A stretch of 64,000 nucleotides of DNA from Elsinoe ampelina. Lineage: Eukaryota. The translations under genes and the position numbers were made by a program. Every line of letters starts with the position of its first letter. The first letter of the stretch is position 1. The stretch spans positions 1,567,508 through 1,631,507 of the forward strand of contig ML992506.1 in the NCBI GenBank assembly GCA_010093995.1, written 5' to 3'. The notes under the pieces are model-generated. The model was not told where the DNA came from, searched no databases, and was given only the letters and a program-made list of their open reading frames with translations. Below are positions 50,060 through 64,000 of this stretch, piece by piece.

Positions 50060-50920
50060 CTATGAAGGCCATTTGACAGCAAGATGGTCGATCAACCATC
50101 TCCGGATCTTCTCATAATCTCTACATTTGTGCCTGGAGTCGAAGTCTGACCTCTCCCCAATCGGCGCCTCGGGGTCGATTTCAACGAGCATGGGTGCCGT
50201 ATCGCCATAACACATCAATGTCTTCCGGAGCTCTTCGATACAATGGTCGGTGTGCATGCGCCGACCCACCGCTGTACTCTTCTGCGGATTGGTGAGGTTG
50301 TGACGCTCATAGTAATCGCCCCAAGTGTACTGGCGGATGTAGTCGAGACAATGCAGCTGATGGAAGACACCGATAGCCGCTGCGTAGCCGCCGCCCTTGT
50401 CGGATGCCACTGTCTTCCAATTCTTTTCTACTTTGACCCCGGTCACGAGATGGTGCAGTTTATCACGAGGTACGCTGACTTCACCATCTGTCAAAGTCAG
50501 AGTCCGCACAGTATCGAAGGTGAGTTGCATACAATCCCACAATTCTTGCCACAGCTTCTCTCGCTCTATGGTTGGTGGACCTCGGAATGGGGTCTTATGG
50601 GAGAACATGTTATCGAAATTGTGTTCGTAGTATTCGACCGCTTCGTTGGCAGGGGCTAGGATTATCAGCAAGCAGGAAAGAATAGGCTGAGAAGTCCCAC
50701 AATAGACGCTCAATCTTTTGACACACTCGGCTTCAGCCACGGGAAGGAACATGAAGATGGCGGCGGCGATGGATATTCCAGCCGCGAGAGACAGCATCAT
50801 CAGAGAGGCTACAACGGGCCCCGGCCATGGCACTAGGCTATTGACTTTGGGCTTCCTGTGCTGGCCCAGCAATGCCTCATTTTGCTCATCGTCTTCGCTC
50901 TGATTGTGATCGGAGTCCAT
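50060..50920 (-). CDS. DUF3328 (UstYa-like) oxidase; two 45-nt introns (50700-50656, 50532-50488)
   Basis: N-terminal transmembrane anchor, FRGPP..E....W, two HxxHC motifs (FHQLHCL and HTDHCIEELRKTLMCYGD) and C-terminal HKCRDY. Confidence 0.93.
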   Translation of the reverse strand: MDSDHNQSEDDEQNEALLGQHRKPKVNSLVPWPGPVVASLMMLSLAAGISIAAAIFMFLPVAEAECVKRLSVYCGTSQPILSCLLIILAPANEAVEYYEHNFDNMFSHKTPFRGPPTIEREKLWQELWDCMQLTFDTVRTLTLTDGEVSVPRDKLHHLVTGVKVEKNWKTVASDKGGGYAAAIGVFHQLHCLDYIRQYTWGDYYERHNLTNPQKSTAVGRRMHTDHCIEELRKTLMCYGDTAPMLVEIDPEAPIGERSDFDSRHKCRDYEKIRRWLIDHLAVKWPS

Positions 50921-51204
50921 TGCCTTTCTTAGAGTTGTCAACGACAGTGACGATAGAGGCTAGAGATCAACCCTTACTAGACATGTATACTGGCCGAGAT
51001 GGGCCGACCAAAGTGGTTGGACGAGGAAACCTGGATTCGGCCAGTCTCTACATGGTCAGCTGATGATCAGCTTACCAGCTTGACACAACACACACGCCAA
51101 TCCCGGCAAACCACTTCCGCAACCCCTTCGGTCTGTCTCCTGATCAATGTCGTTCGAAATCATCTCGATACGCTATACAACGTACTACACGAGACCCATA
51201 CACG

Positions 51205-51372
51205 ATGCAAGTGCACACCATCGTCACGACGCTTCTGCTCGCTACCTGGCGATTCGTCTCTGCTCTGCCGATACCTATCAACATTCCTCCTGGCGCCGAC
51301 ACCTCAAACATTAGCTATGCCTACCAGGATGAAATCGACGCCGCAGATCCTTTCGAAGTTCTAGGAGAATAA
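51205..51372 (+). CDS. Small predicted secreted peptide (55 aa), candidate RiPP precursor
   Basis: MQVHTIVTTLLLATWRFVSA-LPIPINIPPGADTSNISYAYQDEIDAADPFEVLGE*. Hydrophobic signal peptide ending V-S-A followed by LP, A at -3 of the ATG, and 284 bp divergent from the DUF3328 start. Below the size cutoff of the ORF track. Confidence 0.72.
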   Translation: MQVHTIVTTLLLATWRFVSALPIPINIPPGADTSNISYAYQDEIDAADPFEVLGE

Positions 51373-61230: not shown

Positions 61231-61474
61231 AGCCTGCGAGCAATGAACTGAACAGAACAGCATTAGGTTAGCGTACGCTGGGAGACGTGTTTCGATCCAA
61301 ATGGCACTTGATGACTCCGATAAGCCTAAGTTGTAGTCATGACCACACTGTATAAGGACTGGAATGAGAAGACGTCGGAGATCGCATCTTGAAGCCAAGA
61401 CGACCACGCCAAGGCCCCCCGGCGCCACGACAGTGAGGCATAATTGCAACTCAAGCACTCCATTGGTAATCGAC

Positions 61475-64000
61475 TCAGTCTACGAGCGTTCCCCGGAGCT
61501 TTGCCGCATCGGGACTGTGCTGTATGAGGTCGTGAAACGCACCTCGTGCTTTGTACAGGTCCTTGGGCGCGCCGCATTCGACCAGCCTACCGGCATCCAT
61601 GACCGCGACTTGTTCGAGATCCAGGACGGTGCTCAATCGATGCGCAATGATAATCAAAGTGCTTTTCCCGCACGTTGAGCGAAGTGTGGTTTGAATGCAG
61701 TCCTCAATATCTGCATCGACCGAGCTGGTAGCCTCGTCTAGTATGACTATCCGGGCGTCCCGAGCGAGGCCCCTTGCCAGGCATATCAATTGACATTGAC
61801 TCTGTGAGAGGTTCTGTCCGCGCTCCGTGACCTCAAAGTCTAAATCAAGAGATTGGCGCGTACTTTGGCTCGAGCTGGATTGTGTGTCCACCGATGCGGG
61901 ATCACGCGCTAGGCCTACGTCCTGGAGCGCTTGATTCAAGGACGAGTCACGCAATGTCGCCGAAGGATCGAGATTGTAGCGAATTGTGCCAGCAAACAGC
62001 ATCGGGTCTTGAGGTACAAAGCAGATGCGCGCTCGAAGCTCAGCAAGTGGGACATCCTGGATGTTGAGGCCATCGATCTTGACGAATCCCGAGCTGAAGT
62101 GCAGACACCGAAGCATTGCTTGTGCGAAGGAAGACTTCCCAGCTCCGGTCCTACCGACAATTCCAACGCGGCTTCCCGGCGGTATGTCGATCGTGATTCG
62201 TTTGAGGACAGAAGGCTCCCCAGGAATGTAGCTTGCACAAAGATCTTGAATAGCCACATGACCATGACTCGGCCAGTCTTGAGGAATGCTAGCTCCAGAG
62301 TAGTCTTCGCTCGGGACTCTGGCGTACTCTACGATACGCTCAACTGCGTTCATGTCTATCTGCAGACTTGCATATCTTGAGATTGCCTCTTCAGCATGAG
62401 CAGAATATCCAAGCGCCAAGGTCAGAACCAGTCCAGCCAAAGAAGGATCGATGTCGAGATTCGCAACGTACAGTGCTACAACGAGCACGAACGCTGAGCC
62501 GATCATGCCCATGCGGAAGTCCATCCACTGGTATACGAGCGAGAATGCTTGACTGGCTCTGATCTGGTCATCCAAAAGCTTATGCATGCGGCGAAGATAA
62601 TACTGCTCCTTGCCAAAAGCTCGAATGGTCGATGAACCAAGGCTGCAGGAGCTCAGGAGGTCTAGCACCGGAGACCGAGTGACCGCATCCAGTCGCCTCG
62701 TACCACGAGCCGCTCTTAGATAGATCACTGAGTACCAGAGTCCGAGCACCATTAGGAGGCTCTCTGGTATGATGAGCAGCGGAGAAATCAACAAAGCCGC
62801 CACAGTCAAGGTCAGTAGACCAAAGACTGATGAGAAGAGCATGTGCCCGTCTCCGGGGAGCTTCGTATCCATCAGAGTGCAATCGGCAGACATGCGATTC
62901 TGGATCCGCCCAGTCGGCGTCTTGCTAAACCATTGCAAAGGAGCATGTAGCAGACCGGCCAATGTGGCTGCGAAGAGCTTCTCGGACGCAGTAAGCGAGC
63001 CGCGATAGAAGAGCCAGCATTTAGCTCCCTCCAGCAAGGCTGCTGACATAGAAATTGCAACGTACAGAAAGAGATAAGCCAGTAAGTGCAACGTCTGGGA
63101 CTGGATTCTTGAAGATGGTTCAGCCGGCTTTGATCCAGCGTCCTGCCAGGTCCAGACAGCTAGTGCAAAGTTGCGTGCTAGAAAGACTGCTTGAGAAAGC
63201 CCGACGGTCAGAAGTGCCAAGGTCCAGAAAGAAGGTGTGCCTGCCGCTCCTGAATACTTTGCGTAGAGGGACCATGGGACGTGGCCAGTCTCTGTGTGCT
63301 CGTCTGTCTGGTCTCCGATGTCGTTTCCCACAAGTTGATCACTGCAAACGTGCCCACGATGTCGTCGATCCACGAGCGAGTCGGGAGTCGTCTGCATGAG
63401 ATTTGTCTGCCTGGCCCGGCACTCCTCGTTGTTGGCATATACATGCGCAGGGTGACCATGCACGAGTTCGACAGCATAAGCTGCGTCGCTCAAGAACCTG
63501 TCTGGCTGGTTACTCGCCACAATGACTGTTCGTTCGCCCGTCAGCGATCCCATGACACCGAACTTTGCAATCTGTTGAGCTGTCCTGGTGTCGAGTGCGC
63601 TGAACATCTCATCAATCACAATTGTTTGAGCGTGCGAATACAGGGCTCGAGCTAGGGAGAGTCGCAACCTTTGTCCGCCGCTCAGTCTGAGACCCTGAAT
63701 TCCGATGTTGGTAATGTCGCCGTATTCCATCGCCTCAATGTCCGGACCCAGGGCAACAGCCTCGAGAACCTCGTTGTATCTCTTGGTCTGGTAGGGTGAC
63801 CCAAAGAGAACAGCATCTCTCACGCTGACAGCTTCGAGCCAGGGGTCCGACGCAACGTATGCTATGGGACTGATCACATTCTGATCGGAGCTGCGATGCC
63901 CTTGATGCCTGGCTGAACTCTCGGCAATGATGAGCTGACCATTTGTCAAGTACGCTTCACCGAGGATTGCGTTGAGCAGCAGTGACTTCCCCGTGCCGCT
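61475..64000 (-). CDS. Second ABCC-type transporter, 5'-partial (continues beyond the window)
   Basis: NBD1 SGTGKS...LSGGQR, TMD2 (TPTGRIQNRMS...TIRAFG), and NBD2 GRTGAGKS, PQDPMLF, LDEATSSVD, IAHRL. More than 2.5 kb uninterrupted. Confidence 0.93.
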   Translation of the reverse strand, partial: SGTGKSLLLNAILGEAYLTNGQLIIAESSARHQGHRSSDQNVISPIAYVASDPWLEAVSVRDAVLFGSPYQTKRYNEVLEAVALGPDIEAMEYGDITNIGIQGLRLSGGQRLRLSLARALYSHAQTIVIDEMFSALDTRTAQQIAKFGVMGSLTGERTVIVASNQPDRFLSDAAYAVELVHGHPAHVYANNEECRARQTNLMQTTPDSLVDRRHRGHVCSDQLVGNDIGDQTDEHTETGHVPWSLYAKYSGAAGTPSFWTLALLTVGLSQAVFLARNFALAVWTWQDAGSKPAEPSSRIQSQTLHLLAYLFLYVAISMSAALLEGAKCWLFYRGSLTASEKLFAATLAGLLHAPLQWFSKTPTGRIQNRMSADCTLMDTKLPGDGHMLFSSVFGLLTLTVAALLISPLLIIPESLLMVLGLWYSVIYLRAARGTRRLDAVTRSPVLDLLSSCSLGSSTIRAFGKEQYYLRRMHKLLDDQIRASQAFSLVYQWMDFRMGMIGSAFVLVVALYVANLDIDPSLAGLVLTLALGYSAHAEEAISRYASLQIDMNAVERIVEYARVPSEDYSGASIPQDWPSHGHVAIQDLCASYIPGEPSVLKRITIDIPPGSRVGIVGRTGAGKSSFAQAMLRCLHFSSGFVKIDGLNIQDVPLAELRARICFVPQDPMLFAGTIRYNLDPSATLRDSSLNQALQDVGLARDPASVDTQSSSSQSTRQSLDLDFEVTERGQNLSQSQCQLICLARGLARDARIVILDEATSSVDADIEDCIQTTLRSTCGKSTLIIIAHRLSTVLDLEQVAVMDAGRLVECGAPKDLYKARGAFHDLIQHSPDAAKLRGTLVD

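Follow-up and report, generated by a model that had tools for sequence, protein, structure and literature searches.

Probable left arm of an orphan non-ribosomal peptide synthetase cluster at the edge of a 64-kb window of Elsinoe ampelina

Which core enzyme do the biosynthetic genes at the right end of a 64,000-nucleotide stretch of the Elsinoe ampelina genome serve? This stretch, hereafter the window (GenBank assembly GCA_010093995.1, contig ML992506.1, positions 1,567,508 to 1,631,507), closes with a compact run of genes for tailoring enzymes and transporters. The region studied here spans 50.0-64 kb and ends inside the second of two ABCC transporter genes. A first-pass annotation had described it as a biosynthetic set with neither a polyketide synthase (PKS) nor a non-ribosomal peptide synthetase (NRPS) in view, and had proposed that the product is a cross-linked, hydroxylated, prenylated and O-methylated ribosomal peptide or, alternatively, that a small peptide locus abuts a meroterpenoid cluster whose core synthase lies beyond 64 kb. 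In agreement with the first of these statements, Pfam searches of ORFs from this region and of long ORFs from the rest of the 64-kb window return no PKS or NRPS. We conclude that the region is probably the left arm of an orphan NRPS cluster conserved in Elsinoe, with the core directly after the second ABCC gene, past the right edge. The impression of a prenylated ribosomal peptide pathway that has no core would then arise because the window edge cuts the cluster in two.

NRPS genes beside a collinear locus and beside oxygenase relatives

The genes on which the comparison with other species is based are as follows.

46334-49670, minus strand: protein kinase gene (Pfam Pkinase, 7.7e-36); introns 48563-48610 and 48709-48754 are spliced in RNA contigs
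50060-50920, minus strand: DUF3328/UstYa gene; 3 exons, introns 50656-50700 and 50488-50532, 256 amino acids; Pfam UstYa (3.7e-37) on the open reading frame (ORF) 50060-50959
52036-57031, plus strand: ABCC transporter 1 (ABCC-1); Pfam TMD0, ABC_membrane and ABC_tran in four pieces, 52256-56811
57202-58142, plus strand: WelO5-like Fe(II)/2-oxoglutarate (2OG) oxygenase; 2 exons, intron 57515-57561, 297 amino acids; Pfam WelO5 (PF22814) and 2OG-FeII_Oxy_3 on 57552-58142
58246-59166, minus strand: UbiA-type aromatic prenyltransferase; single exon, 306 amino acids; Pfam UbiA (7e-44) over 248 of 250 profile positions
59819-61233, plus strand: class-2 O-methyltransferase (OMT); 5 exons, introns 60002-60048, 60176-60227, 60352-60404 and 60869-60919; Pfam Methyltransf_2 on 60397-61230
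61475-64000, minus strand: ABCC transporter 2 (ABCC-2); C-terminal 841 amino acids only, the 5' part lying past the window end; Pfam ABC_membrane and two ABC_tran (61475-63997)

A collinear locus is present in Elsinoe fawcettii. The antiSMASH cluster 13 of this species, tabulated by Jeffress et al. 2020 (PMC7259788, Table 7 and supplementary file 8), is of class 'nrps' and holds 21 genes; its order reads Pkinase, DUF3328, ABC_tran, 2OG-FeII_Oxy_3, UbiA, Methyltransf_2, ABC_tran, AMP-binding, Ank_2, DIOX_N, Ank_4 and Methyltransf_31. From the kinase to the second ABC gene, the successive steps in E. fawcettii, computed from the distance-to-TE column of the table, are 3712, 1952, 5141, 1043, 1265 and 1434 bp, and those in the window are 3726, 1976, 5166, 1044, 1573 and 1656 bp. 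The second ABC gene of E. fawcettii is 5342 bp long and is followed by the AMP-binding gene, which is read here as a multi-module NRPS of ~13 kb because the next gene does not start until 13,354 bp further on. By synteny, the E. ampelina NRPS should start ~2.8 kb past the window end. The two loci are thus alike in order, spacing and orientation-independent content from the kinase through the second ABC gene, with proteins that are 60-87% identical. They differ in that the NRPS, two ankyrin proteins, a DIOX_N 2OG enzyme and more methyltransferases are visible in E. fawcettii, whereas here these would fall past the window.

The individual proteins follow the same pattern of kinship within the genus. 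The DUF3328 protein is 87% identical (alignment) to E. fawcettii D9617_8g049410 and 69% to its E. australis counterpart, and the 2OG oxygenase is 82% identical to E. fawcettii D9617_8g049390 and 65% to E. australis; the two E. fawcettii genes are two locus numbers apart. For UbiA, the best match is the E. batatas protein (90%), followed by that of E. fawcettii (60%). The tailoring genes are co-conserved with the core, in that the seven-gene order, the spacing and the NRPS recur in E. fawcettii, the gene order being taken from one other species. The gene list of cluster 13, 21 entries long, includes no PKS, tyrosinase or S41 peptidase; neither the window nor this list contains a terpene cyclase or an epoxidase. 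Cluster 13 is given without similarity to a known cluster and is left undiscussed in the paper (PMC7259788). The E. fawcettii counterpart is, in other words, already listed in a published antiSMASH table, uncommented and without a product.

This synteny supports one half of the alternative offered by the first-pass annotation: a core beyond 64 kb is consistent with the E. fawcettii arrangement, but there the core is an NRPS and not the PKS of a meroterpenoid pathway. The annotation had also named, as evidence that would count against a joint pathway, a PKS or NRPS outside the window that accompanies UbiA and OMT alone. The finding comes close to this, with the difference that the E. fawcettii NRPS adjoins the whole gene set and not just UbiA and OMT.

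A second line of evidence comes from the surroundings of the 2OG family elsewhere. Metagenome contigs were scanned with an alignment of 18 2OG relatives, which gave 23 loci; after near-duplicates were merged, nine distinct fungal contexts were retained. Left out of the nine were L001, L011, L016, L019 and L020 (≤3 kb, with no useful flank) as well as L015 and L021-L023 (28-43% identical, dense overlapping ORFs, probably bacterial). In five of the nine contexts the 2OG relative adjoins NRPS or NRPS-like genes: multi-module NRPS genes are found in L002, L009 and L017/18, in L004 a C-domain ORF stands where the contig stops, and L006 combines an A domain with a reductase-type NAD_binding_4 domain. 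In L002 (3141-20895), a multi-module NRPS directly adjoins the closest 2OG relative from outside Elsinoe (63%), and the contig also carries an alpha/beta hydrolase and one or two UstYa/DUF3328 ORFs (Pfam 8e-8; hidden Markov model 4e-6 plus two weaker matches). Its content suggests another cluster of this general type, one that lacks UbiA. Elsewhere in the survey, the near-duplicates L007/8/10 place the 2OG relative with a threonine-aldolase-like pyridoxal phosphate enzyme, an ATP-grasp enzyme and a P450; in L007 and L010, retroelement ORFs lie close by. These loci may represent a small NRPS-independent amino-acid or peptide pathway.

These two sets of neighborhoods also bear on whether a large synthase is needed at all. 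In such a pathway, UbiA would prenylate a phenol from primary metabolism (for example, 4-hydroxybenzoate or a derivative of tyrosine), and the product would be decorated by the remaining enzymes. This scheme agrees with the absence of a core enzyme from the window and with the derivation of UbiA proteins from 4-hydroxybenzoate polyprenyltransferases, after which many of the matches are automatically named. With an NRPS adjoining the collinear E. fawcettii locus, and with NRPS or NRPS-like genes next to the 2OG family in more than half of its metagenome contexts, we consider it very improbable.

Gene models, enzyme features and transcripts

Tight spacing (0.1-0.7 kb) and two divergent pairs, DUF3328/peptide and UbiA/OMT, had been described for this region. 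Both descriptions agree with the gene models, in which the gaps between coding regions in 50-64 kb are 103-663 bp and the orientations are as previously given. Seven genes had been counted; six of these are found in their expected places, each with its open reading frame and catalytic motifs kept, whereas the seventh, a 55-codon 'peptide', could not be confirmed as a gene:

51205-51372, plus strand: 55-codon ORF with a signal-like N-terminus

When 12 ORF pieces from the region were submitted to Pfam, 9 gave a family match; the three pieces with no match were this peptide ORF (51205-51372), the first exon of the 2OG oxygenase and the first exon of the OMT.

The DUF3328 protein carries a hydrophobic helix at its N-terminus and two motifs, HQLHC and HTDHC, that are invariant in nine aligned DUF3328 sequences. 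Its two introns are in frame and 45 nucleotides long, and the matching 15-residue stretches are absent from all eight aligned homologues. The model of the 2OG oxygenase reads the same as a 297-residue E. ampelina protein at NCBI, with 100% identity in exon 2. Residues His174, Asp176 and His261 are invariant in 18 sequences (His174-Cys-Asp176). In an AlphaFold2 model (predicted local distance difference test 84), the top Foldseek match is WelO5 (E 6e-13, TM 0.62-0.69), followed by SadA; in a profile search of the PDB, only the C-terminal half aligned to WelO5, so that the HxD region was not reached. WelO5-type halogenases have Gly or Ala in place of the facial-triad carboxylate. Based on the invariant Asp in the HxD triad, the enzyme is predicted to be a hydroxylase and not a halogenase.

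The translation of UbiA contains both Asp-rich motifs (NDNVDQDFD and QDLEDD), and the sole PDB match is ApUbiA. The OMT coding sequence specifies ~400 amino acids and closes with a single stop; its best solved relatives are MpaG' (1.5e-32) and LepI (1.3e-22).

Transcript evidence was drawn from four sequencing runs of the same organism, presumed to be RNA and available as contigs, from which expression cannot be ranked; these were aligned to 45-64 kb. Splicing is seen in RNA contigs for the kinase gene and for ABCC-1. In the latter, 13 GT..AG introns are observed, and their removal gives an open frame of 1453 amino acids. A 14th, in-frame intron of 45 nucleotides at 55390-55434 is likely, which would give 1438 amino acids, because the length of RNA record 4 (run X3) then fits the contig 51894-58072 that covers ABCC-1 and the oxygenase. 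From the same contig-length arithmetic, the 2OG gene is very probably transcribed and spliced. Coverage is absent in all four runs from 58948-59581, which takes in the UbiA 5' end together with the region between UbiA and OMT, and in runs X4-X6 from DUF3328 and the 55-codon ORF; these gaps count neither for nor against transcription.

To the left, the protein kinase gene is the boundary of the cluster and lies outside it; the E. fawcettii cluster is likewise bordered by a Pkinase gene. In 1-49790, only housekeeping-type Pfam families were returned for 16 long ORFs, of which the kinase is the last. Within the kinase gene, runs X4-X6 have A for T at 47580 and X4 has A for G at 47839, while X3 equals the window; these mismatches are probably strain differences. 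No regulator gene was seen within 50-64 kb. A gene for a Zn2Cys6/fungal-specific transcription factor is located at 4229-7676, 42 kb to the left of the cluster. Between these two parts of the window, an AT-rich block at 20000-32000 (GC 26-36%, compared with 50-58% around it) has no long ORF and is interrupted by Ns at 23382-23436; it resembles a degraded repeat, or a region of the repeat-induced point mutation type, with an assembly gap.

A shared promoter 9-mer and the lineage of UbiA

Whether the UbiA/OMT pair belongs with the genes to its left can be approached through the intergenic regions. The 64 kb contain exactly three copies of the 9-mer TCAGCTTAC, all on the plus strand, where 0.58 copies are expected, and three of 100 shuffles reach three copies. 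All of the copies are in intergenic regions of the cluster:

51067-51075, plus strand: TCAGCTTAC copy 1, DUF3328/ORF intergenic region, 138 bp before the ATG of the 55-codon ORF; inverted one-mismatch partner at 51055-51063
57068-57076, plus strand: TCAGCTTAC copy 2, ABCC-1/2OG intergenic region, 134 bp before the 2OG ATG
59726-59734, plus strand: TCAGCTTAC copy 3, UbiA/OMT intergenic region, 93 bp before the OMT ATG; inverted one-mismatch partner at 59700-59708

The inverted partners of copies 1 and 3 sit 4 to 17 bp upstream. In shuffled sequence, 0.01 9-mers would be expected to be common to at least three of the four promoter regions, compared with the one observed; among 2000 random control sets drawn from real sequence elsewhere in the window, 58 reach the same sharing (p ~0.03). 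Because the 9-mer is common to their promoters, there is a modest indication, from sequence only, that the DUF3328-ABC-2OG trio and the UbiA/OMT pair may be regulated together.

The lineage of UbiA was examined with a quick tree. In this tree, the pair formed by the E. ampelina and E. batatas proteins sits beside the E. fawcettii protein, within a large fungal prenyltransferase clade; one member of this clade bears a UniRef name from diterpenoid-pyrone clusters. The window protein does not have the N-terminal extension of 40-65 residues that most relatives carry, and eight residues precede its first conserved motif. Eight locus numbers separate a relative of 2OG (PISL3812_06638) from one of UbiA (PISL3812_06646) in Talaromyces islandicus. 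Two other identities were considered for UbiA or its locus and set aside. A housekeeping COQ2 was rejected on the grounds that the acidic N-terminal extensions of the relatives are, by eye, unlike mitochondrial presequences and that identity to the nearest E. fawcettii protein reaches only 60%. A diterpenoid-pyrone cluster would hold a PKS, a geranylgeranyl pyrophosphate synthase, a prenyltransferase, a flavin-dependent monooxygenase and a terpene cyclase, and an excerpt of the source (PMC7156458) mentions no dioxygenase or transporter.

Several observations weigh against the assignment of all six genes to one NRPS pathway. No NRPS is seen in the available sequence of E. ampelina, the window stopping within ABCC-2. 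The identity of UbiA to E. fawcettii is 60%, compared with 82-87% for its neighbors, and the stem of the E. ampelina/E. batatas pair measures 1.2 changes per site in the quick tree, in which the UbiA proteins of T. islandicus and Penicillium odoratum fall outside the Elsinoe clade. A UbiA, OMT or ABC relative within 10 kb was found in none of the nine metagenome contexts of the 2OG family; given this absence, the addition of UbiA and OMT would be specific to the Elsinoe-type cluster. Two contigs, 49950-51689 over DUF3328 and the 55-codon ORF and 59883-61962 over OMT and the tail of ABCC-2, keep all predicted introns, and may be antisense, read-through or unspliced RNA, or DNA. As a side observation, such contigs, which carry no strand, would fit antisense or read-through transcription from the kinase promoter and from ABCC-2. 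Finally, the characterized fungal UbiA prenyltransferases use, to our knowledge, polyketide-type acceptors, and UbiA and OMT may for this reason serve a different substrate.

The last point leads to an arrangement of two side-by-side units, with DUF3328-ABC-2OG working for the NRPS and UbiA-OMT, perhaps with ABCC-2, acting on an unrelated aromatic substrate that is made elsewhere, for example by a PKS. MpaG', the best solved relative of the OMT, works beside a UbiA enzyme in a polyketide pathway, and the diterpenoid-pyrone name within the UbiA clade, the 2OG contexts free of UbiA and OMT, and the different rate of evolution of UbiA from that of its neighbors are all consistent with such a division. 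However, in both Elsinoe species UbiA and OMT are placed between 2OG and ABC2/NRPS, in the interior of the locus and not at its edge; the 9-mer joins the OMT/UbiA promoter to those of 2OG and DUF3328; and the T. islandicus relatives of 2OG and UbiA are only eight loci apart. Two separate units are, on this balance, unlikely.

The long UbiA branch raises a further possibility, namely that the cluster is decaying or incomplete, the NRPS having been lost or broken past the window and the rest being relics, with the exception of the expressed transporter and oxygenase. Spliced transcripts observed for ABCC-1 only, with those of 2OG deduced, would agree with this, as would a UbiA N-terminus shorter than that of most relatives. 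Against decay, all six frames are open with their catalytic motifs kept, and the 90% identity of UbiA to E. batatas, together with short tip branches, suggests continued constraint. We consider decay improbable.

The small ORF, the proposed pathway and known systems

The ribosomal peptide initially proposed for this locus hinges on the 55-codon ORF. In a dikaritin-like pathway for a ribosomally synthesized and post-translationally modified peptide (RiPP), the secreted 55-residue product would be the precursor, cross-linked by DUF3328 and then hydroxylated, prenylated and methylated. Some features are as such a pathway would have them: the UstYa gene diverges from a small ORF with a signal-like start, the codon score of this ORF (0.166 bits/codon) matches that of real genes (0.15-0.26), an RNA contig covers its position, and a copy of the shared 9-mer lies 138 bp upstream. 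Other observations weigh against it. Among 16 further ORFs (ATG start, ≥40 codons) within this intergenic kilobase, two equal its codon score, and the covering contig (49950-51689) is the unspliced one that keeps the DUF3328 introns, its strand and origin being unclear. The ORF lacks both Kex2 (KR) sites and repeats, and an Atlas search found no relatives beyond low-score bacterial lipoprotein clusters. In all frames of 49700-64000 there is no ORF with at least three KR sites and no repeated core; the repeated 4-mers there are solely low-complexity Pro/Leu upstream of UbiA, and Tandem Repeats Finder returned nothing relevant to a repeat precursor. No tyrosinase or S41 peptidase is among the Pfam matches of the window. 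The E. fawcettii table passes from DUF3328 to ABC with no annotated gene in between, and the cluster of that species has an NRPS as the source of a peptide scaffold. The 55-codon ORF is thus a doubtful gene, an ORF rather than a demonstrated one. Since the candidate precursor shows none of the hallmarks of dikaritin precursors, the RiPP proposal is unsupported, and we rank it as the most improbable of the explanations considered.

Returning to the NRPS cluster, gene content, gene integrity, the E. fawcettii synteny and ABCC-1 splicing are demonstrated, and every chemical step that follows is inferred. The NRPS would build a short peptide, and the WelO5-like Fe/2OG enzyme would hydroxylate an amino-acid building block or side chain. 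As described in PMC12435403, DUF3328 enzymes form homodimers at the membrane, their HxxHC(x)nHxxHC motif holding a binuclear copper site, and one of them, CctR, hydroxylates the NRPS product cyclochlorotine. By comparison with CctR, the DUF3328 enzyme of the window, if likewise a membrane-bound binuclear-copper protein, would carry out a further C-H oxidation or form a cross-link. The OMT would cap a phenol, UbiA would attach a prenyl chain to an aromatic ring, and the two ABCC pumps would export the product or protect the producer. We tentatively suggest that its product is a non-ribosomal peptide bearing a prenyl group added by a membrane UbiA-type enzyme, oxidized by DUF3328 and a WelO5-like hydroxylase, and O-methylated.

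If this suggestion is true, no earlier case of UbiA-type prenylation in an NRPS pathway would be on record, as far as the literature was searched, and this one would occur in a genus of crop scab and anthracnose pathogens. The unusual feature of the locus is the combination of a UbiA prenyltransferase with a DUF3328 oxidase in an NRPS setting. In the literature searched, no described cluster was found that has NRPS, DUF3328 and UbiA or even DUF3328 and UbiA together, nor one that joins an NRPS, a DUF3328 copper oxidase, a WelO5-like hydroxylase and UbiA. Searches for T. islandicus, M. phaseolina and E. fawcettii locus tags gave nothing useful, and neither did those on Elsinoe ampelina, whose name escapes the search when spelled with a diaeresis. 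Conserved as it is in several Elsinoe plant pathogens, the locus is a reasonable target for genome mining. More generally, for clusters at window edges that appear to have no core in view, collinear loci should be compared before a core-less pathway is proposed.

Among known systems, the cyclochlorotine (cct) cluster of T. islandicus resembles the proposed pathway in joining an NRPS peptide to copper-dependent DUF3328 enzymes, and the window protein has both motifs and the N-terminal helix. It differs in having three DUF3328 genes (CctO, CctP2 and CctR) compared with one here, and the available part of the source mentions no UbiA, class-2 OMT or WelO5-like oxygenase for cct (PMC12435403); the comparison concerns the tailoring genes. 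With the dikaritins (ustiloxin, phomopsin and asperipin), the locus shares a UstYa-family oxidase beside a small ORF with a signal-like start. In contrast to the dikaritins, as judged in part from the gene lists in PMC6941272, it has no Kex2 repeat precursor, tyrosinase or S41 peptidase, and an NRPS is present in its collinear locus. The MpaA/MpaG pair of mycophenolic acid biosynthesis likewise sets a UbiA prenyltransferase beside a class-2 OMT, and among proteins of solved structure the OMT described here is closest to MpaG'. The mpa pathway starts from a PKS product, whereas the neighboring core here is, by synteny, an NRPS; the likeness is one of gene pairing. Lastly, the oxygenase shares its fold and PF22814 with WelO5 and SadA, which are Fe(II)/2OG enzymes that act on free small molecules. 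Its sequence identity is only 15-17%, and the Asp of the HxD motif, a carboxylate that WelO5 halogenases lack, is invariant in its family, as expected of a hydroxylase-type center.

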